Origin: Anaeromyxobacter sp.
Lineage (GTDB): Bacteria; Myxococcota; Myxococcia; Myxococcales; Anaeromyxobacteraceae
Direction: 5' to 3'
Length of the DNA stretch: 64,000 nucleotides
Assembly: GCA_049840735.1 (NCBI GenBank)
Contig: JASGJN010000017.1
Span: 567,291 to 631,290, forward strand
The translations under genes and the position numbers were made by a program. The notes beneath the pieces were generated by a model that was not told the DNA's origin, did not search any database, and saw only the letters and a list, made by a program, of their open reading frames with translations. Of the stretch, positions 3,808 to 38,340 are shown piece by piece. Every line of letters starts with the position of its first letter. The first letter of the stretch is position 1.

Positions 3808-3836
3808 CTCCCTGACCATATGCGCCCAAATCTAGC
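3808..3836 (-). repeat. Degenerate copy of the 29-bp repeated site
   Basis: Minus strand GCTAGATTTGGGCGCATATGGTCAGGGAG, 24/29 identical to the copy at 12340. Confidence 0.75.
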
Positions 3837-9346: not shown

Positions 9347-9859
9347 ATGAACATCACCCCCCTCGACATCACCCAGAAGCATTTCCCGAAGACCTTCCGC
9401 GGCTTGGATCCGGAGGAGGTCGAGGCCTTCCTGTCGCTGGTGGCGGTGGAGTTCGAGGCCCTGGTCAAGGACAACCAGGCCCTGCGCGACGACAACCAGC
9501 GCAAGGCCGAGGAGATCGTCGAGTACCGGGGGCGCGAGCGCGCGCTGCAGGAGACGCTGGTGGCCGCCCAGAAGGCGTCGGAGGAGATCCGCGACTCCGC
9601 CCGCAAGGAGGCGGAGATCACCATCTCCGACGCCGAGCTGCAGGCGGAGAAGATCGTCCAGGGCGCCCACTCCCGCTTCCTGCGGATCGTGGACGACATC
9701 AACGAGCTGAAGCGCCAGCGCGTGCAGTTCGAGGCCAGCGTCCGCACCCTGGTGGAGAGCCACCTCAAGCTGATCGAGGCGTTCCGCGAGCCCGCGCGCG
9801 AGGAGGCCGTGCAGTACGTGCCCGGCGCGCGCAAGAAGCTGGGCGGCGCGGAGGAGTAG
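9347..9859 (+). CDS. divIVA: DivIVA domain protein
   Basis: ITPLDI...FRGLDPEEVEAFL N-terminus followed by coiled coil. Confidence 0.92.
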   Translation: MNITPLDITQKHFPKTFRGLDPEEVEAFLSLVAVEFEALVKDNQALRDDNQRKAEEIVEYRGRERALQETLVAAQKASEEIRDSARKEAEITISDAELQAEKIVQGAHSRFLRIVDDINELKRQRVQFEASVRTLVESHLKLIEAFREPAREEAVQYVPGARKKLGGAEE

Positions 9860-9915
9860 CGGCGCCGCGGTTCACTCGAGGGGACGCCCGCCTCGGCGAG
9901 CGCCCCCTGATCCCG

Positions 9916-9962
9916 GTCATCCTGAGCGTAGCGCCCGCGGAGCGGGCGCGGAGTCGAAGGAC
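9916..9962 (+). repeat. Single GTAG-type REP-like palindrome, same family as 1114-1374
   Basis: CCTGAGCGTAG-CGCCCGC-GGA-GCGGGCG-CGGAGTCGAAGG. Confidence 0.8.
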
Positions 9963-9999
9963 GACCGGGGGCCCGCACCTCAAGGCCAGGTGGTCGCGC

Positions 10000-10923
10000 T
10001 CAGAACGTGTTGGGCGGCGAGAGGGCCACCCGATCGCCGTCCGAGCCGTTCCAGGACAGCGAGGCCTCGTCGTCCAGGCTCGGGTCGAACCGGCAGGGCG
10101 CGTCCGGCGGCTCCACCACCACCTGGCCGTTCGCGACCGCCGGGTGGAAGTAGGCGATGGCGGCCACCTGGCCGTCGGCGTCGATGTCGGACTCGGCGCA
10201 GATCGAGAACGCCTCGTGCTCCCCGTCCTCGGACGTCTGCGTGGCCACCGTGTAGACCCCGTAGGTCGGGCCGAAGACGCGCCAGTCCACCTGCTCCGCC
10301 GCCGCCTGGTCCTCCTCGGAGAGCGCGACGCGCTCGCTGCCCGGCTCGGCCTCCGCCGGGACGGCCAGCTCGACCGTGCCCTGGCCCGCCTCGAGCCGCG
10401 CCAGCTCCGCCTGGTACAGGCCCTGCGCCTCCGTCGTGACCTGCGAGTACTTCGAGCGCAGCTGGTAGCGGATGAAGTTCGGGATGGCGATGGCCGCCAG
10501 GATGCCCAGGATGACGACGAAGAAGAAGGGCGCGATGCAGAGCACCACCACCATGCCGGTGTTGGCCGCCCCCGGGTACTTCCGCTGGAACTCCTCCTCG
10601 CTCATCACCAGCAGCAGGATGAACTCGATGAAGGCGACGATCCCCGGGATCATCGTCCAGAAGAAGAGCATGTAGACGATGCCCCAGCCCCAGCGCCCCA
10701 GGTAGAACTTGTGGGCGCCGAAGCCGCCCAGGAAGAAGGCCAGCAGCGCCGCGACCACCTTGCTCCGCCCGCCCTGCGGCTGCGCCGCGTAGGGCGCCCC
10801 GCCAGCGAAGGAGAGCTGCTGCGCGCCGCAGCGGTCGCAGAAGCCGGCCTGGGCCGGCAGCACGTTCTGGCACTTCATGCACAGCTTCTGGTTCACACCC
10901 AGCTGCGTGACCGGCTCGTTCAT
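10000..10923 (-). CDS. Zinc-ribbon + TM2 (NINE) + type IV pilin-like domain fusion protein
   Basis: CMKC..CDRC; SKVVAALLAFFLGGFGAHKFYLG (TM2); ILGILAAIAIPNFIRYQLRSK (pilin helix). Confidence 0.85.
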   Translation of the reverse strand: MNEPVTQLGVNQKLCMKCQNVLPAQAGFCDRCGAQQLSFAGGAPYAAQPQGGRSKVVAALLAFFLGGFGAHKFYLGRWGWGIVYMLFFWTMIPGIVAFIEFILLLVMSEEEFQRKYPGAANTGMVVVLCIAPFFFVVILGILAAIAIPNFIRYQLRSKYSQVTTEAQGLYQAELARLEAGQGTVELAVPAEAEPGSERVALSEEDQAAAEQVDWRVFGPTYGVYTVATQTSEDGEHEAFSICAESDIDADGQVAAIAYFHPAVANGQVVVEPPDAPCRFDPSLDDEASLSWNGSDGDRVALSPPNTF

Positions 10924-11095
10924 CGAAGGCTCCCGATCGCCCCGCGGCGATCCCCCGGGTTGAGGCCGGCAGGCTACTTGATCCAGGCGCTGACCCAGCG
11001 GCCATTTCGCTTCCCGGTGCGTGCATGTGCGAGGACCGCGGCGGACTGTCGCTGGTGACGGGCGCGAGCAGCGGGGACGCCCGGCCACGGGCCGC

Positions 11096-11124
11096 ACTTG
11101 ATTCGGGCGGATATGGTCACGGCG
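11096..11124 (+). repeat. 29-bp repeated site, copy 1
   Basis: ACTTGATTCGGGCGGATATGGTCACGGCG; exact inverted match to 13935-13963. Confidence 0.95.
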
Positions 11125-11209
11125 GGTGGCAGGACCTTCGAGCCCGCGCCGGACCGCATCCCTCCCCCTGGACCTTGACCCGGAGCCTCGCGCCCGTGAG
11201 ATTCCGGCC

Positions 11210-12121
11210 GTGCGCCACTCGCCTTGCGCCTCGATCTTCGCGCTCCTCATCGCGCTCCCCGCCGCGGGGGCCTCGCCGCCTCCAGCTGCACCGCCCGCAG
11301 CAGCGGCCCTGGCCGCGCTCGAGGCGCGAGCACATGGCCGGCTCGGCGTCGCTGCGCTGGACACCGGCTCCGGGCGCCGGATCGACCACCGCGGGACAGA
11401 GCCCTTTCCCATGTGCAGCACCTTCAAGGTGCTCCTCTGCGCTCGAGTCCTCCAGCGCGTCGACCACGGCGAGGAGCGGCTCGACAGGCCCATCACCTTC
11501 ACCGAGGCCGACCTCCCGGAGTACGCGCCCGTGGTGCGCGCCCACCTCGACGCCGGTGGGCTGTCCGTCGGCGCCCTCTGCGCAGCCACCGTCGAGGTCA
11601 GCGACAACGCCGCCGCGAACCTCCTCTTGAAGTCCATCGGCGGACCCGCGGCCGTGACCGCCTTCGCGCGCTCGCTCGGCGACGAGCGGACCCGCCTCGA
11701 CCGCGTCGAGCCTGACCTCAACTCCGCCCTGCCGGGCGACCCGCGCGACACCACCACGCCGGACGCCATGCTCGAGGACCTTCGCCTGCTGCTCCTGGGT
11801 GGTGGGCTCCCCTCCAGCTCAGCCCGCCAGCTCGAGGCCTGGATGGCCGGCGCCACCACCGGTGCCGGCCGCCTCCGGGCCGGCGTCCCAGCAAGCTGGA
11901 CGGTCGCGCACAAGACCGGGACCGGCGAGCGCGGGACGACGAACGACGTCGCGCTCCTTCGCGCTCCCGGGCGAGCGCCCATCCTGGTGGCCGCCTACCT
12001 CACGGGTTCCGATCTCCCCGCGGCCGAGCGCGAAGCGGTCCTCGCCGAGGCCGCGCGCATCGTCGTGGGGGCGTTCCCTCCAGCTCCGCCACACACCGAG
12101 GATCGAGCACGGGGCCGATAG
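11210..12121 (+). CDS. bla: Class A serine beta-lactamase
   Basis: Signal-peptide-like N-terminus; FPMCSTFK (SxxK), SDN, EPDLN (E166/N170 omega loop), DPRDTTTP, KTG; start chosen at GTG 11210. Confidence 0.95.
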   Translation: MRHSPCASIFALLIALPAAGASPPPAAPPAAAALAALEARAHGRLGVAALDTGSGRRIDHRGTEPFPMCSTFKVLLCARVLQRVDHGEERLDRPITFTEADLPEYAPVVRAHLDAGGLSVGALCAATVEVSDNAAANLLLKSIGGPAAVTAFARSLGDERTRLDRVEPDLNSALPGDPRDTTTPDAMLEDLRLLLLGGGLPSSSARQLEAWMAGATTGAGRLRAGVPASWTVAHKTGTGERGTTNDVALLRAPGRAPILVAAYLTGSDLPAAEREAVLAEAARIVVGAFPPAPPHTEDRARGR

Positions 12122-12339
12122 CGAGCCGTATCGGGAATTCCGTCTGACGCGCTGGTACCTGCGCTCACCCTTCCTGCGGCTTCACCACGAACCTACGCCG
12201 GTGGATCCGCTGGACGCTCCCGGAGTCCAGCCCGACGACCAGCTTCACCCGGGGGACTTCCACGACCAGATCGATGGCGATCTGTCCCGCTTCCTGCGCC
12301 GTCGGTGAAGCCTCCCTTAGCTGAAGCCTGGGCTGCCTC

Positions 12340-12368
12340 ACTTGATTCGGGCGGATATGGTCAGGGCG
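12340..12368 (+). repeat. 29-bp repeated site, copy 2
   Basis: ACTTGATTCGGGCGGATATGGTCAGGGCG, 28/29 identical to copy 1. Confidence 0.95.
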
Positions 12369-12490
12369 CTGAGGCGAGGGTCGCTCGCCTCCGCCAAGGA
12401 GGCTCTCGGTGTGGGCGCGGGTGACGCTCCCGTGCGCCCGCGCCGCCTCGCGCAGCCGATGTGGCGCCGCGTTCGTGGTCTCATCGCGTC

Positions 12491-12931
12491 ATGGCGACAC
12501 CGGATTGGAAGAGGTTGATATCGTCGCTCGAAGCGGAGGCGGCGTTCCATCCGGCCGCGGCCGCCGAGCAGGTCCGGCAGACAGAAGCCGCGCTGGGCGT
12601 CGCCCTCACGGTCGAACTGCGGTCGCTCGTGCAGCAGAGCGATGGCGTGACCGGCGCATCCGGGGCTGGGCTCGTATGGCCGGTCCAGCCGATCCGTAAG
12701 CAGAACCGGCACTTCCGGACCTTGGCCGACCTCCGCAAGATCTACATGCCGTTTGACCCGCTGCTTCGCGGACGCCGGCAACGGCGACCAGTTCGCATTC
12801 AGGATCTGCGGCGACCAGGTCGCAGGGAACGACGTCTTCGTGTGGGAGCACGAGACCGCCAGCAGGACCTGGTAGCGCCAAGCCTCGAGCGCTACCTCGA
12901 GTGGATCCTGAGCGGGAAGATCCAGACCTGA
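12491..12931 (+). CDS. SMI1/KNR4 (SUKH) family protein with two compensating frameshifts
   Basis: PAAAAEQVRQTEAALGVALTVELR N-terminus; FADAGNGDQFAF...VFVWEHE in a shifted frame (about 12766-12872); VAPSLERYLEW C-terminus. Confidence 0.8.
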   Translation: MATPDWKRLISSLEAEAAFHPAAAAEQVRQTEAALGVALTVELRSLVQQSDGVTGASGAGLVWPVQPIRKQNRHFRTLADLRKIYMPFDPLLRGRRQRRPVRIQDLRRPGRRERRLRVGARDRQQDLVAPSLERYLEWILSGKIQT

Positions 12932-13222
12932 GCCCGGCGCGGCCCTTCCGGGCGCCGACCACCGCATGGCCAGCCGACGCTCGTCCCGTGCGCCTGAGAA
13001 GGCGGACTTTCCACGAAGCGTGTCGTCACTCCGCGTGATCTACTCCACAAGACTCGGGACTTGACCGCGGCGGCGAAGCCCGACTCACCCACCGCCGTCA
13101 GCCGGGCCCCGAGCAGCGCCTGACCCGATGCCGTGACCCCGCGCTTCGGCTACGACCGCCATCGCGAGCTCAGGGACTTCCGGCGCGACGACGCCCCAGG
13201 CCAGGTCAGCCTCAGCAAGGCA

Positions 13223-13861
13223 TCACCCCTTACCCTGAACGCGCTTGGCTCGGCCCATCAGCCACGTCCTCGGCTCCGCGGTCACCGCAACAGGCCAGAG
13301 TCCGAGCTGTCCCACCCGCGGCTCCCGGACCGCCGCGGAAGAGTATGGGTCCACGAACGCCGCGCTCACCTGCTCCCCTCGCCGGGAAGCATGGCTCGCG
13401 AAGTTCCCGCGCACGTACCTGAGCGCGTTCCGAGCCTCGGCCTGCGTCCGCAGCGGGTGCGCGTGGTAGCGCCCCTCGAACACCGGGCCGCGCAGCCCCA
13501 TCATCCGGTTGAGCCGGTGGGTGAGCTTGATGGTCAAGGATCGCATCCCTCGAGCCAGGCCCGCGTTTCCCTCTGCCTCGACCAGCAGGTGCACATGGTT
13601 GCCCTGCACGGCGTACTCGACGACCTGCAGCTCCGCCTTCGCGCGCTGTTCCTCGAGCACCCTGTGCACGACACGGAAGCACCGCTCGCTGCGGAGATTC
13701 CAGACGTGCTCGCGGACGCGCAACGTTACGTGCACCGGTTCCGACCGGTAGACGACCTCGCGAAGACGGTGTGCGACCGGACGGCGGCCGGGCGCCGCCT
13801 TCCGGCCGGCGCCAGCCCGCGCGCCGCCCCAGGGTTTGAACGTGAAGGTCTGCTGCGACAT
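13223..13861 (-). CDS. Y1/HUH tyrosine transposase (IS200/RAYT-like)
   Basis: PVHVTLR, QGNHVHLLVE (HUH), VFEGRYHAHPL, ALRYVRGN (catalytic Tyr), DPYSS. Confidence 0.9.
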   Translation of the reverse strand: MSQQTFTFKPWGGARAGAGRKAAPGRRPVAHRLREVVYRSEPVHVTLRVREHVWNLRSERCFRVVHRVLEEQRAKAELQVVEYAVQGNHVHLLVEAEGNAGLARGMRSLTIKLTHRLNRMMGLRGPVFEGRYHAHPLRTQAEARNALRYVRGNFASHASRRGEQVSAAFVDPYSSAAVREPRVGQLGLWPVAVTAEPRTWLMGRAKRVQGKG

Positions 13862-13934
13862 GGACGAACAGTACGATAGCGCTCTGACACCCAGCGTGCA
13901 CAGGCGCGGCATCGACTCACGCGTGGACGCTTCG

Positions 13935-13963
13935 CGCCGTGACCATATCCGCCCGAATCAAGT
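13935..13963 (-). repeat. 29-bp repeated site, copy 3 (inverted)
   Basis: CGCCGTGACCATATCCGCCCGAATCAAGT is the reverse complement of copy 1. Confidence 0.95.
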
Positions 13964-14157
13964 TCGGGCCACGGGCCCTCGCGCCATGCAGCCTACTCTC
14001 TCACCTCCGCCACGCCCCCACCCGCCGCCGGCGGCGCCCAGGGGTGTCCTGTTTATCTCCTCCACCTCATGGGGCGTACCCGTGCTCGACGCGGTCCAGC
14101 GAGACGTTGAGGTGCACTGCCCTGTCATGCGCTTCGCCTCCTTCCGCCGGCGTCACG

Positions 14158-14186
14158 CGCCGTTGCCATTTCCGCCCAATTCAAGC
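14158..14186 (-). repeat. Degenerate 29-bp repeated site, copy 4
   Basis: CGCCGTTGCCATTTCCGCCCAATTCAAGC, 23/29 identical to copy 3, 24 nt past the polA stop. Confidence 0.75.
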
Positions 14187-14210: not shown

Positions 14211-16911
14211 TCAGTGCGCCTCCGCCCAGCTCCGCCCCTGCCCCACCTCCACGTCCAGCGGGACCTTGAGCTGCGCGGCGGCCGACATCTCTCGGGCGAC
14301 CAGCGCGCTGGCGGCCTCCACGGCGCCCTCGGCCACCTCCAGCACCAGCTCGTCGTGGACCTGGAGCAGCAGGAGCGCGTCCAGCTGCTCGCGCTGCAGC
14401 GCCTCCTGCACGCGCAGCATGGCCAGCTTCACGATGTCGGCGGCGGTGCCCTGGATGGGCGTGTTGATGGCGGTGCGCTCGGCGGCCATGCGCAGCGCGG
14501 GGTTGCGCGAGGTGATCTCGGGCATGGCCCGCACGCGGCCGTAGAGCGTTCGGCTCTCGCCGGTGCGCTTGGCGTCGGCGACGGCCTGGTCGATGTAGGC
14601 GCGCACGCCGGCGTAGCGGGCGAAGTACCGGTCGATGATCTTCTGCGCCTCGCCGGCCGGCAGCTCCAGCCGCTGCGAGAGGCCGAACGCGGAGAGGCCG
14701 TAGGCGATGCCGAAGTTGAGCATCTTGGCCACCCGGCGCATGTCCGGGGTGACGCCGTCCGGCGCCACGCCGAAGGTCTCGGCGGCGGTGCGGGTGTGCA
14801 CGTCCTCGCGGTTGCGGAAGGCCTCCAGCAGCGCCGGGTCGTCCGAGTAGTGGGCCAGGATGCGCAGCTCGATCTGCGAGTAGTCGGCGGAGACCAGCCG
14901 CCGCCCGGGCGGCGCCACGAAGGCGGCCCGGATACGCCGCGACAGCTCGGTGCGGACGGGGATGTTCTGGAGGTTGGGGTCGGTGGACGAGAGCCGCCCG
15001 GTGGCGGCGCCGGCCTGGTGGAAGGTGGTGTGGAGGCGGCCGTCCTGCGGATCGACCAGCTGCGGGAGCGCGTCCACGTACGTGCCCTTGAGCTTCGCGA
15101 GGCCGCGGTGCTCCAGCACCAGCGCGGGCAGCGCGTGCTGCTCGGCCAGCTTCTCCAGCACCTCCTGGTCGGTGGAGGGGCCGGTCTTGAGCCGCTTCAC
15201 CACCGGCAACCCCAGCTCCTCGAACAGCACCTGCGCCAGCTCGCGGGTGGAGGCGATGTTGAAGGGGCGGCCGGCGGCGGCGTGGATGCGCGCCTCCAGG
15301 TCCACCATGGCCTTGCCGAACTCGGCGCTCATGTCCGCCATGGCCCCGCGGTCCACGGCGATGCCGGTCCGCTCCATCACGAACAGCACCGGCACCAGCG
15401 GCCGCTCCACCTCGCGGTAGAGCGGCGTGAGCCGCTCCTCCTCCAGCGCTGCCACCAGCGCCTTGGCCAGATCGGGCAGCGCGGCGGCCGCCGCCCCGCA
15501 CCACTCCGCCACCCGCTCGACCTCGATCCCCTCCAGGTCCACCCGCTCCGAGCGGCGGGCCCCGTCGCCGCCGCTGGGGTCGCGCGGCAGCTCGCAGGCG
15601 ATCCGCTCCCGCGCCACGTCGGCCAGCGCGTGCTCGCGCCGGGTGGGCAGGAGCAGCCGGCTGGCCAGCTCGGTGTCCACCCCCGGCCCGCGCCAGCGGA
15701 GCCCCAGCGCCGCGGCGGCGTGGTGCGCCGCCTTGAGCTCGTGGGCGTGCTTCTCCACCTCGCCCTCCAGCAGCGGCCGCAGCGCCTCGCGGACGCCGTC
15801 GCGCGGCAGCGCGGGGGGCGCGCCCAGGTAGCGGTGGCCGATGGGCAGGTAGAAGGCCCGCCCGCCGCCGGCCAGCCCCAGCCCGACCACCGGGGCGGCC
15901 CGCGGCGGCCCCTCGCCCAGCACCGGGCGAACCCCCACCGCCCCGGCCTGCAGCAGGTGCGCGACCGCCGCCTCCAGGCTGGCCAGGTCGCGCAGCAGCT
16001 CCGGCTTCTCGGCGCGCGCGGTGGGTGGCGGCGCCGGCAGGTCCTTGAGCAGCCGGGAGAACTCCAGCTCGGAGAAGAGCGCCCGGGCGCGGGCGTCGTC
16101 GGGCGGCTGGCGCTCGAAGCTCTCAGGCTGGAACGGCAGCGCCAGGTCACAGCGGAGCGACACCAGCTGGCGGTTGAGGCGGATCCGCTCCGCGGCGCCG
16201 GTGATCTTCTCGCGCAGCTTCTCGCCGCCGCGCGAGAACCGCCTGGGGGATCTCCTCCGGGCGGCGCAGCAGCTCCTCGACCGTGCCGAAGTGCTTGATG
16301 AGCGCGGTGGCGGTCACCTCGCCCACGCCCGGGATGCCCGGCACGTCGTCGATCTTGTCGCCCAGGATGGCCATGTACTCGACCACCTGGTCCGGGCGGA
16401 TGCCCAGCTTCTTCTCCACCTCGGCCGGCCCGGTCCACCCGCCCCGCCCGCTGGCCTCGGCCATCGGGTCGTAGAGCGTCACCTGCCCGTCCACCAGCTG
16501 GGCGAAGTCCTTGTCGCCGGTGACCACCACCACCTGCCAGCCGTGCTCACGGGCGCGGCAGGCCAGCGTGCCGATCACGTCGTCGGCCTCGACGTGGGCC
16601 TCCTCGATGAGCGGCACCCGCAGGGCCCGCGCCACGTCGCGCACCAGCGGAAACTGCGCCTTGAGGTCGTCGGGGGTCTCCGGCCGGCTCGACTTGTAGC
16701 CGGGGTCGAGGTCGTGGCGGAAGGTGGTGCGGGCCGCGTCCAGCACCAGCGCCACGTGCGTGGGCGCCCGCTCCCGCAGCGCCTTGAGCAGCATGGTCGT
16801 GAAGCCGTAGACCGCGTTGGTCGGCTGGCCCTTCGTGGTGGTGAGCGGCGGGAGCGCGTGGAACGCCCGGTAGACGAACCCGGAACCGTCGATCAGGGTC
16901 AGCGTCGGCAT
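14211..16911 (-). CDS. polA: DNA polymerase I (frameshift near 16238, probable sequencing error)
   Basis: 5'-3' exonuclease LIDGS..YRAFHALP, EADD, GDKD; polymerase TGRLSSTDPNLQNIP, ADYSQIELR, QVHDELV. Confidence 0.97.
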
Positions 16912-16975
16912 GGCCCGCACGATAGCCGCGCGGGCGCCTGCGGGCACCGCGAAAAGTTGGGCTCCCGGTTGGCGC

Positions 16976-17619: not shown

Positions 17620-20209
17620 TCAGCGGATGACCTTGCTGCTCCCGAAGTAGAGCGCCGGGCTGAAATCCAGCACGAAGCCGTCCACGTAGGGCACGTAGAA
17701 CCGGTAGGCCTCCGTGCGCTGCCCCTCGTACTTGCTGCGGTCGAAGGGCACCGCCGGGAAGGGCTGGCCCAGCGAGCCGCCCGAGCCCGAGGGTGCGGCG
17801 CGGTAGGAGGCCGTGAACCCGGCGCGGGTGCCGACCTCGGCGGCCATGTCCCGCCACGGCTTGCCGGTCGTCTCGCCCACCGCCGGCACGAAGCCGACCT
17901 TGAAGGTCAGCGCCGGGCCGTCGGCCAGCGGGAACGGGAACTGCGCCACCGGCCAGCGCGTGACGCAGGCGCCCGAAGAGGCCTGGTCCAGGCACTCGTC
18001 CGAGAGGTGGTAGATGCGCCGGGCCTTGCGCGCGATGGCCAGCTTCTCGCAGCGGGCGCGGCAGACGTCGTCGCAGTCCACCACTGCCGGGCTGGCGGGG
18101 AACGGGTCCGGCCACGGCCAGGGCGAGAGCGGGCAGAGCGCCGCCAGCTGCCACTCGGTCAGCAGGGTGCCGGGCGCGCCCGGATCTGCCTGGAGGTACG
18201 AGAGCGAGTACGCGTCGCCGCTGGAGCTGGTGGCGATCCTGGCGCGGCCCACGTACCCCAGGCCGGCGCTGACCACCACCACCTCGGGCGCGTCCTCGGT
18301 GCCGCCGCCGGCGCGGAGGCTGGCGGGCACGCGCTTCCCCTGGCGCAGCGTCGGGGCGCAGGCGGTCCACTCCGCCGCCGCGGTGCAGTCGGTCTCGCCC
18401 GTCGAGTCGGTCGTGCAGCCCGGCTCGGTGAGCACCAGCGCTCCGCCCGGATAGGCCGCGGTGGGCGGGAGCAGGGCCGAGATGCGGGCCTCGACGGCGG
18501 TGGTCTCGTTGTCGTCGGTGCCGTCCGGGCAGTTGTCCAGCCCCTCGGCGGTGCTGAGCAGGACGATGTCGCCCACGTGGACGCCCAGCGCCGGATCGTA
18601 GACCTGCACCACCTGCGTGCGGCGGGTGCCCCCTGCCCCGTCGGACTCGCTGGTCTGCAGCGCCACCGCCACCGCGTCGCCGTAGGCGAAGGTCTCGGCG
18701 CTGCGCAGCTCGAAGCCGGGCAGGCCGCCCTCGTAGGTGACGCGGAAGGTGTCGCTGGGCGTGTAGCCGGGCGTCACGCCGAAGGCCAGGTTGGCGTAGG
18801 CGTAGATGACGCCGACCTTCTGGTCGTGCTCCGAGTTCTCGTACCAGAAGCCCAGGCGAGGGCTGAGCGGATCACCGGTGTCCAGCGAGGCGATGGCGGT
18901 GCGGGTGGAGGTGCTGTTGAGGATCGAGGTGTCGGACGGGACGGCCCAGCGCGACAGGTCCACGTAGTAGACCCGGCCGTCGCCGCTGGGCACCGCCAGC
19001 AACCCGGTGGTGGTGCGCACGCCGGTGCTGGGCGCGATCTTGAGGTACGGGGCGGCGTACTCGTCGTCCGTGGCCGCCACGGCCGGGGCGATGGCAACGG
19101 TCAGGCCGGTGGGCCGGACCGGCAGCCGGATGGGCGCCAGGTACGGGGCCGCGCCGGAGACGTCCGCCCGGAGCGTGCCGGTGACCGGGTCGATCACCGC
19201 GATGCCGCAGTTGATGATCTGCGACGGCCCGCAGTAGCCCTCGGAGAGGACCGCGTAGACCCGGTCCACCAGCTTCATGCTCCCATCCTCGTTGATCTCG
19301 AAGGGATCGAGATCCGGGTGGTCCGGGTTGGGGTTGTTGGCCACCGAGCCCGGCTTGCGCTCCGAGAGCCGCGTGGCGGCCACCAGGCGCGTGGGGACGA
19401 GCGTGTCGAGCCCGCGCCAGGTCCAGGCGCCCGGGGTGCCGGTCACGTCGAAGTCGGCCACGCCCAGCACGTCCCCGGAGGCGGTGGGGATGGGGTCCTC
19501 GGTGGCCGCGTAGAGGTGCGTGACGTCGAAGGTGTTCACGGCCAGCGAGAGCGCCTGGAACGACTCGCCGTCGAGCGTCAGCGGCTGCACCGTCGCGGTC
19601 TGCGGAGACCGGCACGATGGAGCCGTCCCCGACCCGCTGGTACTCGGCCACCGCCAGCTTCTGCCCGGCCAGGGACGCGATCACCCGCACGCGACCGGTG
19701 GCCGCGCGCCAGCCGCCCGCGCCGTCGGACTCGGGGACCGGCGCCGCCACCGCCGCCACCAGCGGCGCGCCCAGCTCCACGTCGTGGCTCTCGTCGGCCA
19801 CCACGTTGTACGGCGCACCCTCGGCCGTGAGCCAGGTCTGCACCAGCTGCATCCGGGTGGACCCGGCGCCGACCACCACCAGGAGGTCGGCCAGGGGGGC
19901 CTCGTCGGTCGAGTCGCCCAGCGACGCGCCGATCACCTTGGCCGGGTACGGATCGCCGACCGGCACGGACTGCGGGCGGACCAGCACCGGCGCCAGCACC
20001 GCCTTGTCGTCCAGCGCGTCGATCAGGACCAGCTCGTCCTTGCCGCTGCTGGCCACCGCCACGTAGGGGTGGAGCGCCGCGTTCTTGGTGGTGAAGCCCT
20101 CGAAGATCGCCACCGAGGTCGGCTCGTTCAGGCCGACGCCGATGGAGGTGGTGTAGTTCTGGCAGGCGGTGAGCGCCAGCGCCAGGGCGGCGAGCGGCAG
20201 GGCCTTCAC
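17620..20209 (-). CDS. Large lipoprotein of unknown function (frameshift near 19605)
   Basis: Lipobox ALTAC after GTG 20209; two ORF segments with host-like codon pattern join end to end. Confidence 0.75.
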
Positions 20210-21503
20210 TGGGCTTTGCTCCCGATGCGCAGGGGTTTGGACGGATCGGCCTCGTCGTGCACCACGTCGGCCGAGGCCGGGTCGGCCAGGGGCACATCCA
20301 CCGGCGTGACGAAGGCGTCCTCGAAGGAATCCCACGAAGATCCGGGCGACGTCGCCGCGGTCCTGGACCGCCAGCCCGAACGGCAGGTGGCCCAGCACGG
20401 GCCCGCCGGTGGTGGGGTCGCGGCCGAAGACCTTCACCATCGCGCCGGACTCGTCGTCGTAGATCCAGAGCAGGCCGTCCTCGGTGGCGGCGACCGCCAC
20501 CAGGTCGCGCATCCCGTCGCGCGCCGGCAGCACGGCCAGCTCGGAGGCGCCCAGGCCGATGTCGATGGTCCGGACCACCACCGGCCGCGGCTCGCCGAAC
20601 GCGCCCTCGCGCAGCTCCAGCACGACCAGCAGGCCGCCGATGTCGTAGGTGGGGCGGGTGCCGATGGCGGAGGCCACGTCGGCGTCGTAGAGGCGCAGCG
20701 CCACGTACATCCGGCGCACCTCGCCCTCGCGAGGCGTGGAGAGGGCGATGCCGGCCGGCTCCGAATCCGCGGAACAGGCCGTAGAGGTCGAAGGAGCGCA
20801 GCGGGCACCCGCCGGAGAGCTCCGGGTCCCCCACCTTGCAGCCACCGGCCAGCTCCAGCCAGCGGATCAGCGCGGCCGCGCCGCCGTTGGCGGTGCTCCA
20901 GTAGAGCCGGTTGCGCGCGGCGTCAAAGGCGAAGCTGCGCACCGTGCCGACGCCGGTGTCGATGGTGACGCGAGCGCCGGTCTCGAGGTTGAGCGAGCCC
21001 AGGTAGCCCCTGGACCCGAGCGCGCGCAGGTAGCCGACCCAGGCGCGCGAGGTGACCCCGACGCCGCAGGTGAGCGTCACCGCGTACGGGTCCGCCCCGC
21101 CCGCCACGCCCAGGTCCGTCCGGCAGCCGTCGCAGGTGAGCGGACCGCCGTCGAGCGCCACGCGCCAGAGCGCGTTCTCGGTGCGCGAGGTCACGAACGC
21201 CTGCGGCGTCGCGAACGCCGCCCCGCACTCCGGCCCCGCCACGGCCAGCTGCCCGCCGAAGTTGCCGATCCGGATGCCGCTCGGCCCGGCGGCCACGTCG
21301 GCCAGGTCCACCTTTGTCAGCGAGCCGTTGTCGTAGAGCAGGTCGAAGTTGGAGGAGACGACCAGCAGGTCGTCGCCCGACAGGGCGAGGCCGGTCGGGA
21401 ACGCGAAGGCGTCGAGCGGGATGTCCGCCGGCGGCTTGCTCAGCTGGCAAGCCGGCAGGAGCACCGCAGCGAGGAGGGCCAGCCGAGGGAGGAGGGCGCG
21501 CAC
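20206..21503 (-). CDS. Lipoprotein, probable beta-propeller (frameshifts near 20765 and 20330)
   Basis: Lipobox LLPAC; FAFPTGLAL..LLVVSSNFDLLYDNG; repeated beta-strand blades. Confidence 0.7.
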
Positions 21504-21561
21504 GGGGAGGCGCGAACCGTAATCCCCGGTGCGGCGGATGGTCAAGCGCATGAGCCGCCCG

Positions 21562-34708: not shown

Positions 34709-37308
34709 GTGACCGGCCCCTCCCCCTCCACCACCCCGAACGGCCACGCCGCCTCCGCCGAAGGCGGCGGGGTGCTCGGGCCGTGGTTCGAGCCGGTCAA
34801 GGTGCCCCGCGACGCGGGCCCCACCCTGCACGACCTGGCCTCGCGCGGCAGCCTGGTCTTCGTGATGCGGTCGCCCGGGCTGCTCAACTTCCTCTACCTG
34901 CGCTGGGTGCTGCGGCGCATGGGGCTGCCGCCGCTGCGGGCGGCGCAGGGGTTCCCCGGCTTCTTCGGCTGGCTGGCCCGGGTGCGCCGGAGCCGGCGCG
35001 CCTTCGACGAGGCGGTGCGCTCCGGCGCCTCCAGCCTGGTGTTCCTGGGCCGGCACCGCCCGGCCCGGGATCCCTTCGTGGCCCTGGCCCGGCGGCAGCG
35101 CGAGCTGTTCCAGCCGGTGTTCCTGGTGCCGGTGCTGCTGGTCTGGACGCGCCGGGCGCCCAAGCTGGAGGGGTCGATCTGGGACGTGCTCTACGGCTCG
35201 CCGGAGGCCCCCACCGCCTTCGCCAACGCCGTGGCCTTCCTGCGCAACTTCCGCCGGGCGGTCTTCGACGTGGGCAAGGCGCTGGACCTCAAGGCCCTGC
35301 AGGCGGGCCGGGCCGACCAGGGCGACGCCGAGCTGGGGCTGCGGGTGAGGGGCATCCTGCACCAGCACCTGGCCCGCGCCTTCCGCACCGCGGTGGGCCC
35401 GCCGCTCAAGGCGCCCTCGCGCGTCCGCGAGAAGGTGCTGCGCGACCGCTCGCTGCGGGCCGCGGTGGAGGCCATCGCCCGGGAGACCGGCCGCTCGGTG
35501 GAGTCGGTCAACGCCGAGGCGGCGCGCGACCTGAAGGAGCTGGCCAGCCGGTACGACCCGATGTTCGTCCGGCTCATGCGCCCGGTGCTGGCCTGGGTCT
35601 TCAAGCGGCTCTACACCAGCGTCGAGGTGGACGAGGAGGGGCTGGAGCGGCTCAAGCGCGCCGCGGCCGAGGCGCCCATCGTCCTCTGCCCCAGCCACAA
35701 GAGCCACGTGGACTACCTGGTCCTCTCCTGGCTGCTCTACGAGAACGGCATGACCGCGCCGCACATCGCGGCCGGCATCAACCTCTCCTTCTGGCCCTTC
35801 GGGCCCATCGCCCGGCGGGGCGGCGCCTTCTTCATCCGGCGCAAGGTGCGCGGCGACAGGATCTACACGGCGGTGCTGCGCGCCTACGTGAAGCACCTGC
35901 TGCGCGATCGCTTCCCGCAGGAGTTCTACGTCGAGGGCGGCCGCAGCCGGACCGGCAAGCTGCTCTTCCCCAAGGTCGGCCTGGTCTCGATGGAGGTGGA
36001 CGCCTGGCTGGAGGGCGCCGCCGACGACGTGCTCTTCGGTCCATCGCCATCGACTACGAGAAGGTGATCGAGGCCTCCAGCTACGCCGAGGAGCTGGCCG
36101 GCGGCGAGAAGCGCAAGGAGAGCCTGCGCGGGCTCTTGGGGGCCGCCACGGTCCTCTTCCGCAGCTACGAGCGGCTCTACGTGCAGTTCGAGGAGCCCAT
36201 CTCCCTGCGCGCGCTGGCCCTGCGCCGGCTGGGCGAGCGGACGGCCTCGCTCACCATCGACGAGGCCTGGGAGGGCGAGGCGGCGCGCTCCTCCACCACC
36301 ATCCTGGCCCCCGGCGCCAGGGACGCGCCCGCCGGCGCCAAGCGCCAGCTGGTGCAGGCGGTGGGCAACTGGATCGCGTACGGCATCAGCCGCGCCGTCA
36401 CCATCACGCCGGTGGGGCTGGTCTCGGCGGCGCTGCTCTCGCACGCCCGGCGCGGCATGTCCGCCCGCGAGGTGGAGGAGCGGGTCGAGCTCCTGCGCTA
36501 CATCGCCGCCGAGGGCGGCGCCCGCTTCGCGCGCGACCTGGCCGGCGCCCCCTCCGATCCGCGCCAGCCCGGCCCCATCGGCGACGCGGTCCGGCGCCTC
36601 TCGCTGCAGGGGCTGGTCCGCGTCGAGCTGGCCGCCGGCGACACCATCTACCAGGTGGTGGACGACAAGCGGATGCTGCTCGACTACCACCGCAACGCGG
36701 TCATCCACCGCTACGTGGCCCCTGCGCTGGTGGCGCTGGCGGCCTGCTCCGCCCGGGCCGACGAGCCGCTCGAGGCCACCCGGGCGCGGGCGCTGGGCGT
36801 GTCGCGCCTCTTCAAGCTGGAGTTCATGTACCGGGTGGGCGCCACCTTCGACCTGATCTTCGACCAGAACGTGGCCTTCCTGGAGCGGGTGGGGGCGCTG
36901 GCCCGCACGCCCGAGGGTGGCCTGCGCGCCGGCCCCCAGGCCGAGCGGCTCACCTTCCTGGCCGAGTTCATGCGCCCGTACCTGGAGGCCTACCGCCTCA
37001 CGCTCGGAACCGCGCTGGCGGCCTGCGACGCCCACACCGCCGTGGACCGCAAGGCGCTGGTGCGCGAGGCGCAGGAGCGCGGCCGCGCCGCCTTCCTCTC
37101 CGGCCAGATCGCGGCGCGGGAGGCGCTCAACAAGGCCACCATCGGCAACGCCGTCGAGTGGCTGCTCGATCAGCAGCTGCTGGTCGAGGCCGACGACGAC
37201 GGCAAGGTCCGCCTCGGCCGCGGCGGCCCGGACGCCCTGCGCCAGGTGCTCGGGGGTCAAGCCCTTCTAGATTACCCTTTCGTCCCGGGCGGGCCGCCGG
37301 GCGGGTAG
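34709..37308 (+). CDS. plsB: Glycerol-3-phosphate acyltransferase, PlsB-like (frameshift near 36040)
   Basis: HKSHVD (HxxxxD), GAFFIRR, EGGRSRTGK, IAIDYEK. Confidence 0.88.
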
Positions 37309-38340
37309 ACTGGACGCCTGCGCGCGCTCACCGCTGCTCGAGCTCGGCCAGCCAGTCGTGCAGCGGCGGTCCGGGGTGGTGGCGCAAGGCCCACAGCACC
37401 TTCGCCACCTGGCCGGTGCTCATGCCCAGGACCCGCGCGATCTCGTCGTGCGGGTAGGCCTGCGCGCGGCTGAGCGCGTAGACCGCCAGCCTCCGCCCCG
37501 GGTTGGCGCCGCGTCCCATGGCCGGGCGCTTGAGCTCGGCCATGCTGCAGCCGGCGATGCGCGCCACCTCACGCAGCACCTGATCGACGCTGGCGGGGCG
37601 AACCTGCTCCGCCCGGCGGGGCCGGCGCAAGGGACGCTCCTCCGGCTCGTCCCCGCGGCGGAACCAGCCGGTCTCGAGGTCGAGCAGCGGCGGGAAGAGC
37701 TCGACCTGCTTGCGCCGCGCCCGGACGAACGCCTCCACCTTGGCTGGACCGCCCAGCCGCTCGCGGAAGACGTCCAGGGTGAGCCAGCGCGCCGGGTGGC
37801 GCTCCCGGCCCAGGTACGCGCGCAGGCTCGACCAGCAGTCGTCGTCGAGCCGGGTGGCCAGCCCCGCCTTGAAGGGGTTCAGGTGGATGTAGGCGAAGAG
37901 CGCGTCGAGGTGGGCCTCGTCCTCCACCGGCTGGCTGCGGAAGCGGCCGCGGAAGACCGGCCCGTCCCAGCCATGGAGGCGGTTGAGCCGCTGCGTGTAG
38001 GTGCCGTTGAGGTGGCGCATGGCGCGCGAGAGGTTGCCCAGCGGGGAGCGCGCCAGCAGGTGGTAGTGGTTGGGCATGAGGGCGTAGACGTGCACCTCCA
38101 GCCCGTGGTGCAGCGCCGCCTCGTCCAGGCACTCGAGGAACAGCTCGCAGTGGGCGTTGCGACGGAAGATGGGCTCGCGCCGCGCCCCGCGGTGCATCAC
38201 GTGGTGCCATGCGCCGGGGTGGTCGGTCCGGAGGAGTCGCGCCATGGGCCCACGCTAGCGCACCGGGGCGGGCAAGTGGAAGGAACCGGCCCCCCGCCCC
38301 GCGCGGGCCGCAAAGGGTAATGTCGGATGGATTGACCCCC
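37252..38340. mobile_element. Y1/HUH transposase element bounded by imperfect 29-bp terminal inverted repeats
   Basis: GGGGGTCAA-N10-ATTACCCTTT at 37252-37280 and its inverse at 38312-38340; no target duplication seen. Confidence 0.8.
37328..38245 (-). CDS. RAYT-like Y1 tyrosine transposase with C-terminal DnaA-C-like HTH
   Basis: HHVMHRG, LMPNHYHLL (HUH), FRGRFRS, YIHLNP, WSS; helical HTH tail. Confidence 0.93.
   Translation of the reverse strand: MARLLRTDHPGAWHHVMHRGARREPIFRRNAHCELFLECLDEAALHHGLEVHVYALMPNHYHLLARSPLGNLSRAMRHLNGTYTQRLNRLHGWDGPVFRGRFRSQPVEDEAHLDALFAYIHLNPFKAGLATRLDDDCWSSLRAYLGRERHPARWLTLDVFRERLGGPAKVEAFVRARRKQVELFPPLLDLETGWFRRGDEPEERPLRRPRRAEQVRPASVDQVLREVARIAGCSMAELKRPAMGRGANPGRRLAVYALSRAQAYPHDEIARVLGMSTGQVAKVLWALRHHPGPPLHDWLAELEQR

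Follow-up and report, generated by a model that had tools for sequence, protein, structure and literature searches.

The insertion between divIVA and polA

A short repeated site accompanies the gene of a small Y1/HUH transposase-like enzyme in a 64,000-nt stretch of the genome of Anaeromyxobacter sp. (Myxococcota; GenBank assembly GCA_049840735.1, contig JASGJN010000017.1, positions 567,291 to 631,290), hereafter called the window. The genome from which it comes is designated G000, its contigs Cxx, other genomes of the genus G0xx and fetched loci Lxxx. Comparative analysis tied the site to the clade of this enzyme and characterized it as free of hairpins, as arranged in inward-facing pairs, as facing foreign DNA and, in one duplication, as ending the copied DNA at its outer edge.

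Two core genes anchor the insertion, divIVA on the left (9347..9859, + strand, PF05103) and the 3' part of polA on the right (14211..16163, - strand, PF00476). Between them, a nested set of sites (+ + - -) holds a class A beta-lactamase gene (bla, 11210..12121, +), an SMI1/KNR4 (SUKH) immunity-type gene (12491..12931, +) and the Y1/HUH gene (13223..13861, -), which codes for 212 amino acids. A preliminary description of the locus had named these three genes, and the identities were borne out: the enzyme matched Y1_Tnp (PF01797) with an E-value of 2e-7, above the cut-off, and the beta-lactamase matched NF033103 above its cut-off. The SMI1/KNR4 call was weak in Pfam (E 0.065, below the cut-off) and strong by the Atlas feature score (0.95); all ten best hits having a family shared that family. 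The GC contents at third codon positions (GC3) were 0.87 for bla and 0.76 for the SMI1/KNR4 gene. At E<=1e-40, bla was found in none of the 36 other genomes of the genus.

Three near-perfect copies of the 29-mer were present at 11096..11124 (+, site 1, the outer left arm), 12340..12368 (+, site 2, the inner left arm) and 13935..13963 (-, site 3, the inner right arm upstream of the Y1 gene), a number reached in none of 100 shuffled sequences. The outer right arm is a fourth, degenerate copy at 14158..14186 (-), which has six mismatches (23/29) and lies 25 nt beyond the stop codon of polA. All four copies had been proposed before, as had a spacing of 70 to 125 nt to co-oriented genes, and both proposals held: the near-perfect copies precede the starts of bla (GTG, 11210), SMI1/KNR4 (ATG, 12491) and Y1 (ATG, 13861) by 85, 122 and 73 nt. 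The statement that the flanks are otherwise unrelated was correct only in part; an 11-bp direct repeat at 11083..11093 and 13967..13977, a possible duplication that is not general in the family, flanks the pair 11096-13963. Gene scraps between the modules were not confirmed: three candidate peptides lacked Pfam hits, the fetched loci gave no non-self match, and the 300 nt before 12340 had no repeat in G000. A fifth copy stands alone at 3808..3836 (-), about 55-65 nt behind tatD, and 15 further copies lie elsewhere in G000.

The surroundings hold several features of other kinds. A TM2/zinc-ribbon membrane protein gene (10000..10923, -) belongs to the G000-specific interval; given its position beyond the outermost site pair and its host-like composition (GC3 0.99), it may be a separate gain. 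A copy of an unrelated abundant palindrome resembling repetitive extragenic palindromic (REP) sequences was located at 9909..9971; this family has hundreds of matches in G000 and often stands just outward of Y1 sites. A probable Y1 promoter was inferred at 13868..13889 (-), with a TGTCAG box (13884-13889) and, after it, a hexamer that resembles a -10 element and is separated from the ATG by 6 nt. Many Y1 promoters have the box 10 nt before such a hexamer, irrespective of the site; it is possibly a regulator box. The polA gene appears as two open reading frames (ORFs), 16147-16947 and 14211-16163, with the break region around 16150-16240, probably due to an assembly indel. Genes at 18800-21550 likewise look frameshifted, and the middle third of the SMI1/KNR4 gene is possibly out of frame; such apparent breaks in this assembly, including that of SMI1, may be assembly errors.

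The repeated site and its Y1/HUH clade

A position-matrix scan of G000 recovered 20 copies of the site at 31-50 bits; the next-best match reached 17.4 bits and the reversed-genome control at most 15.5 bits. In the sequence logo, conservation extends over about 26 nt (positions -1 to +26); the 29-bp repeat described before is real, but its conserved core is somewhat shorter. The conserved blocks are A-W-C-TTGA, GGC-GA and T-GTCA, the outer one being written as (A)(A/T)CTTGA. Between genomes the spacer differs by 1 nt, and a weak TGA...TCA dyad is visible within the site. No hairpin was detected in it, the mean folding z-score against shuffles being -0.2 to -0.4 on both strands. The folding test and the logo, which has no GT[AG]G foot, ruled out a REP or hairpin identity. 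A promoter for extracytoplasmic function sigma factors was rejected because conservation falls on the spacer and not on the -35 flank, and an explanation of the strand by replichore orientation because both strands are in use within 3 kb. Seventy-three pattern matches in viral sequences, none with Y1 and mostly on contigs near 50% GC, were treated as chance. In metagenomes, the exact 23-mer of the site had no match and the short-form pattern eight; locus L253, whose match lies inside a gene in DNA of 46% GC, was left out of the later site sets.

The protein of 13223-13861 carries a HUH motif (N-H-V-H, 88-91) and one catalytic tyrosine (Y149) in a Y1 fold, and thereby belongs to the TnpA-Y1 (HUH) superfamily. 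N88, H89, H91, Y149 and N153 were invariant in all 32 aligned homologues; 1,669 relatives were found at E<=1e-10. The structure model (mean predicted local distance difference test score 76) matched best the Escherichia coli TnpA-REP (4er8, E 7e-6 in Foldseek), followed by the TnpA proteins of ISDra2 and IS608. Scores for the NCBIfam models remained below the cut-offs, both for REP-associated tyrosine transposases (RAYT, NF047646, 37 vs 80) and for IS200 (NF033573, 17 vs 55). The catalytic signature is YVRGNF (Y---NF/H/Y), not Y---NP, and the C-terminus had no helix-turn-helix (HTH) hit. An N-terminal WGG-R-GAGRK motif and two clamp-like QxxLF motifs are additional traits. Of 118 homologues, 113 have a clamp-like Q..[LF].[FL] ahead of the WGG motif (2.5 expected from shuffles), and Q..[LF][FW] followed the core in 105 of 119 (0.8 expected). 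A beta-clamp motif Q-L-S-L-F/L is described in the available text of PMC3971601, and the QxxLF motifs of the enzyme resemble it and may bind the beta clamp.

Relatives of the Y1 protein were present in 21 of 37 genomes of the genus, and a variant of the site shorter by one base lies just upstream of many of them. A matrix built from G000 alone found 53 matches in 80 Y1 loci from GTDB genomes, most of them within 160 nt of the Y1 start, and three in the reversed loci. The pan-matrix gave 95 versus two matches in 91 loci, a comparison that is partly circular as the matrix was partly trained on the same loci. In this set, the site stood forward near the start in 19 loci, in both orientations in one and forward further upstream in five, while 28 had none; the reversed arrangement of the remaining loci is weighed below. 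It predominates over promoter and start codon at the Y1 loci of other Myxococcota. In the tree, made as a quick search, the window protein grouped in a clade of 20 members (Shimodaira-Hasegawa approximate likelihood-ratio test 92), 18 of which have a forward upstream site and 12 a downstream inverted site. A strict site pattern was found in 16 of the 21 Y1-positive and in seven of the 16 Y1-negative genomes of the genus; some of these genomes are incomplete, and close kin are not independent. A stricter pattern occurred in ten of 65 genomes of the same family and in none of 135 from other families. Co-occurrence of site and transposase clade, which the preliminary description had raised as a check, was observed. 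By these comparisons, the site qualifies as the cognate cis-site of a RAYT-like Y1/HUH clade of the Myxococcota. At L108 and L120, two head-to-head copies make up a hairpin immediately upstream of the Y1 start codon, resembling an empty unit.

Paired units, solo copies and the edges of inserted DNA

Outside G000, inward-facing pairs of the site enclose Y1 and/or cargo in 19 units of 0.4–8.4 kb. Thirteen contain Y1 (G009, two in G011, G013, G016, G040, G041, G042, G044, two in G045, G048 and L091); those measured span 0.7-8.4 kb, and in one of the 13 the left arm is weak. The six pairs without an intact Y1 gene comprise a 6.2-kb unit in G042 that holds a methylase and a type III restriction gene, the 484-bp unit of L250/L257 with a single ORF, and one unit each in G016, G040, G041 and G048; remnants of Y1 are present in those of G041 and G048. 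These pairs support the earlier suggestion that an inverted pair can delimit a mobile unit carrying cargo. In 12 pairs, the arms were more alike within a pair than between pairs (20.9 versus 17.6 of 25 positions), a difference not reached in any of 20,000 permutations. The two G011 pairs had 22 and 21 identities within and 17 and 16 across pairs. The 11-bp repeat around the window pair exceeds the null, which reaches 9. A stretch of 197 nt is common to two G048 units that lie on different contigs (96% identity), and this identity breaks off 3 nt outside the TCAA of the right site; on the left, the two units have cargo DNA in common. Type III restriction-like ORFs with the stop codon inside the site were observed at two unrelated loci (L076:9180-9205 and L254:1519-1543).

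The divIVA gene was fetched from 31 relatives and polA located in 28 of them. The gap between both genes is below 200 nt, hence empty, in 19 of the 28 and measures 4.36 kb in G000. Nine relatives have inserts; in G044 and G009, Y1 stands between inverted sites in the orientation opposite to that of G000, and these are the only two relatives with sites at this junction. For 12 of the 16 solo sites of G000, synteny was checked against five relatives (left out were C20:190389, C26:476197, C10:5220 and C20:807875). Eight of the 12 stood at a synteny break or at that edge of an insert which faces the core gene, a tally without a formal base rate. The inserts measured 1.2 kb at typA, 1.75 kb at tatD, where the insert is specific to G000, and 2.1 kb on C10; further edges or breaks were found at C13:476763, on C23 and C25, at C20:175075, some 500 nt away from the core gene, and at C20:592536, informative in one relative only. 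Together with the empty junctions, this agrees with the prediction that copies mark presence/absence breakpoints.

The site is polar with respect to its surroundings. According to a crude codon-based gene caller, the nearest outward gene was co-oriented at 17 of 19 sites in G000, compared with about 43% expected from the gap classes. Inward of the sites, the codon-based host-like fraction over 1.2 kb was 0.19 versus 0.43 in 1,784 control gaps; with the window cluster counted once (17 independent sites), it was 0.22 versus 0.43 (p=0.007). For 42 sites in other genomes the values were 0.15 inward and 0.42 outward, and among 34 measurable sites host-likeness was higher outward in 18 and lower in six. 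The outward gene was co-oriented at 26 of 38 sites in these genomes. Most solo copies in G000 follow a co-oriented gene and face foreign DNA (eight of the 12 compared by synteny).

Several recurrent neighbourhoods were seen. The same core-gene 3' ends serve as anchors with different cargo at polA (G000, G009, G044) and at a gltD-like gene (G041, G045); anchors are also shared by L078/L259/L290 and by L272/L282/L074. Sites stand shortly before tRNA-like genes at C20:190389 (tRNA-Sec-like by eye), L269 and L280. A rare terminator-like hairpin of 26 nt, with five copies in G000, lies a short distance outward of three of the 20 sites (C20:592488, C20:807940, C25:75119).

Interpretation as a probable end site of a mobile element

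The arrangement is probably best explained by the site acting as the recognition and end site of the RAYT-like Y1 clade, in an element that resembles TIRtrons, i.e., Y1 genes between terminal inverted repeats (TIRs), carries cargo and often moves DNA in a one-ended manner. In a subclade of the Anaeromyxobacteraceae, the units would consist of Y1 alone, Y1 with genes or genes alone, the site being read inward from both ends. The enzyme may be held at the replication fork by its putative clamp-binding motifs and bind the site on single-stranded DNA, with the cut at the outer (A)(A/T)CTTGA block or close by. DNA inward of the site would then be pasted into intergenic DNA, usually behind the 3' end of a gene. 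A unit with two arms would result where a second, inverted site forms the far end; without it, the far end would be ragged and a solo site would be left at the edge of the insert. Because the DNA shared by the two G048 units includes the outer block, the junction is likely placed at or within the outermost approx. 7 nt, unless the block was matched by target choice. Repeated use of one junction may create nested stacks such as the + + - - set of the window. Its simplest history would start from an inner unit 12340-13963 with SMI1 and Y1 that was enlarged or re-targeted, giving the bla module and leaving an older degenerate arm behind polA. A further step, that a Y1 family enzyme operates as a gene-capture system by reading an unstructured directional site, with a behaviour like that of ISCR elements or integrons, is more doubtful and put forward only tentatively. 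Capture would start precisely at the site, proceed into the adjacent DNA and stop either raggedly or at a second site. Insertion of the captured piece downstream of host genes would then build up nested stacks, with genes for beta-lactamase, restriction-modification, immunity and toxin-antitoxin functions as cargo.

A number of observations speak against the interpretation as an end site. The site is reversed over the -10/start region of Y1 in 38 of 91 loci, an operator-like position. The strict pattern occurs in seven of 16 genomes of the genus lacking a Y1 match, including seven copies in G043 (89% complete), and Y1 was nearby in only one of eight metagenome loci found by the site. Within-pair arm identity did not exceed cross-pair identity in G045. 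A general target duplication was not found; one of 17 pair combinations, the pair 11096-13963 with its 11-bp repeat, lay above the null. On the left, the G048 duplication reaches about 170 nt beyond the site, and this outer segment is present only twice in that genome; in this single case, one end is precise and the other overshoots. The 16 solo sites in G000 lacked an inverted partner within 6 kb; two of the 12 checked by synteny had no cargo gene and two were uninformative. Homologues of two cargo genes in G044 had no site within about 2 kb. Inserts between divIVA and polA were free of the site in seven of nine relatives, which marks the junction as a general hotspot. A base-exact empty allele was not seen among the relatives compared; the support is comparative.

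Some of these observations would suit a solo repeat of REP type, whose Y1 enzyme spreads only the short site while foreign genes arrive otherwise and pairs arise from a hotspot hit on both sides. The site-free inserts at divIVA-polA, the solo sites without cargo and without partners, the frequent vicinity of other REP-like repeats and the single-copy TIR families on record (available text of PMC3733652) all fit such a repeat. However, it does not account for the greater likeness of arms within pairs, including both G011 loci, for sites that face foreign DNA even next to a divergently oriented outward gene (12 of 38), or for the duplication in G048, in which DNA of cargo and of Y1 was copied up to a site. 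We consider a repeat without cargo capture unlikely.

Stacking of cassettes in the manner of integrons, in which direct copies are the recombination points and circles of site plus gene are released and inserted, had been favoured in the preliminary description. The cargo is indeed unrelated and foreign, and direct copies exist in the window (11096/12340 and 13963/14186), in G031 and around two Y1 genes. These few stacks are outnumbered by the 19 inverted pairs and the solo ends, no array of more than two modules was present among 133 distinct sites, and the site lacks an attC-like hairpin, which renders this alternative improbable. The proposed recombination or capture signal thus stood insofar as the site belongs to a Y1 family and marks breakpoints; strict integron-like stacking as the rule was only partly supported, because inverted pairs and solo ends dominate.

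The probability is lower still that the site is an operator and not a cut site, bound in double-stranded form by the Y1 protein in autoregulation or by a host regulator. Its position over the Y1 start region in the 38 loci and the spaced conserved blocks without a hairpin would agree with an operator. Against this, the site marks synteny breaks, its distance to downstream starts is variable, and several copies face 3' ends or empty DNA. It is not retained at the orthologous core genes of relatives unless Y1 is present there, thus a host operator, mentioned as a shared regulatory motif in the preliminary description, is unlikely; autoregulation of Y1 may coexist with a role as end site. Use of the site by another enzyme, either a tyrosine recombinase or the second Y1 protein of subclass 2.1 at 37328-38245, both types being encoded in G000, is highly improbable in spite of the weak dyad, as the spacer length differs by 1 nt from genome to genome, as the second Y1 is flanked by separate terminal repeats, GGGGGTCAA, with no copy of the site nearby, and as the association of the site tracks the WGG clade across the Myxococcota.

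Among described systems, the TIRtrons and their TIRYT enzymes are closest to the proposed element: in the accessible text of PMC3733652, a Y1 gene of low copy number is flanked by inverted repeats that are not REPs, sometimes overlap the gene ends and form a modest dispersed family. The inverted pairs of the window, the downstream inverted copies in 12 of the 20 clade members and the 20 dispersed copies in G000 correspond to this definition. The GGGGWSAS motif, typical of the majority of TIRs only, is absent from the logo of the site. TIRYTs belong mostly to TnpA-Y1 subclass 2.1, which features a Y---NP signature and a C-terminal HTH extension (as far as described in the available text of PMC6006769). 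With YVRGNF, 212 amino acids and no HTH hit, the window enzyme is set apart from it in these described features; the WGG-R-GAGRK motif and the two clamp-like motifs are additions. The units also differ from TIRtrons by kilobases of cargo or the absence of Y1, and by solo copies at the edges of accessory DNA; cargo is not described in the accessible parts of PMC3733652 and PMC6006769. A second, classical TIRtron is located in the window at 37252-38340, with a Y1 protein of 305 amino acids (NHYH, YIHLNP, a C-terminal HTH-like region, GC3 0.96) and 29-nt inverted repeats starting with GGGGGTCAA.

REPtrons with TnpA-REP (RAYT) share the best structural match and a cognate, dispersed intergenic repeat. 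The site differs by the lack of a GTAG/GTGG foot and of a hairpin, by a NF047646 score below the cut-off and by about 20 copies rather than hundreds. TnpA-REP cleaves single strands at C|T, also in places far away from the REP (available text of PMC3333891), and its association with specific host genes was reported and, in the text accessible, left unresolved by the authors (bioRxiv 2020.03.09.984088). The IS200/IS605 family (IS608, ISDra2) has the Y1 fold in common, however its subterminal hairpins at asymmetric ends, Y---Q signature and multicopy state were not found here; the ends are symmetric, the element is single-copy, tnpB is lacking and the NF033573 score is below the cut-off. The outer block contains TTGAT, the target of ISDra2, and on the other strand TCAA, the right cleavage site of IS608 (available text of PMC5934647), and it resembles ATCTTGAT in an origin derived from pC194 (available text of PMC7072734). 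These likenesses to known HUH sites may serve as leads, not as tests. IS91 and ISCR elements likewise move adjacent genes, including resistance genes, by HUH enzymes from one defined end (PMC13393415 and PMC5714925, available text), whereas the window enzyme belongs to the small TnpA-Y1 family, matches only Y1_Tnp in Pfam, and has identical inverted ends instead of oriIS and terIS.

None of the 37 genomes of the genus encoded an IntI above the TIGR02249 cut-off. In integrons, a short site stands beside unrelated accessory genes that are stacked directly. Such a site next to unrelated accessory genes is shared by the system described here, with direct stacking only occasional; the attC hairpin is missing according to the folding test, and the arrangement is mostly inverted or solo. 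A literature search, mostly without subscription papers and without the supplements of PMC3733652 and PMC6006769, returned nothing on this Y1 clade or its site.

According to the available text of PMC6006769, the in vivo role of RAYT- and TIRYT-type Y1 enzymes is not established, and for several subclasses a substrate is not known. The clade of the window enzyme offers a candidate substrate that is defined over 26 nt and clearly polar, together with natural variants that go with individual enzymes and Y1-less units of 0.4-6 kb; the cleavage position and the transfer of cargo are thereby directly testable. If the interpretation as an end site is true, the enzyme would be a very small single-strand integrase independent of hairpins, and, should the more doubtful gene-capture reading hold as well, ISCR- or integron-like behaviour would arise from a family of 212-aa enzymes thought to be limited to short repeats. 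With the end-site interpretation, soil Myxococcota would possess an added route of gene acquisition, including the capture of an environmental class A beta-lactamase.

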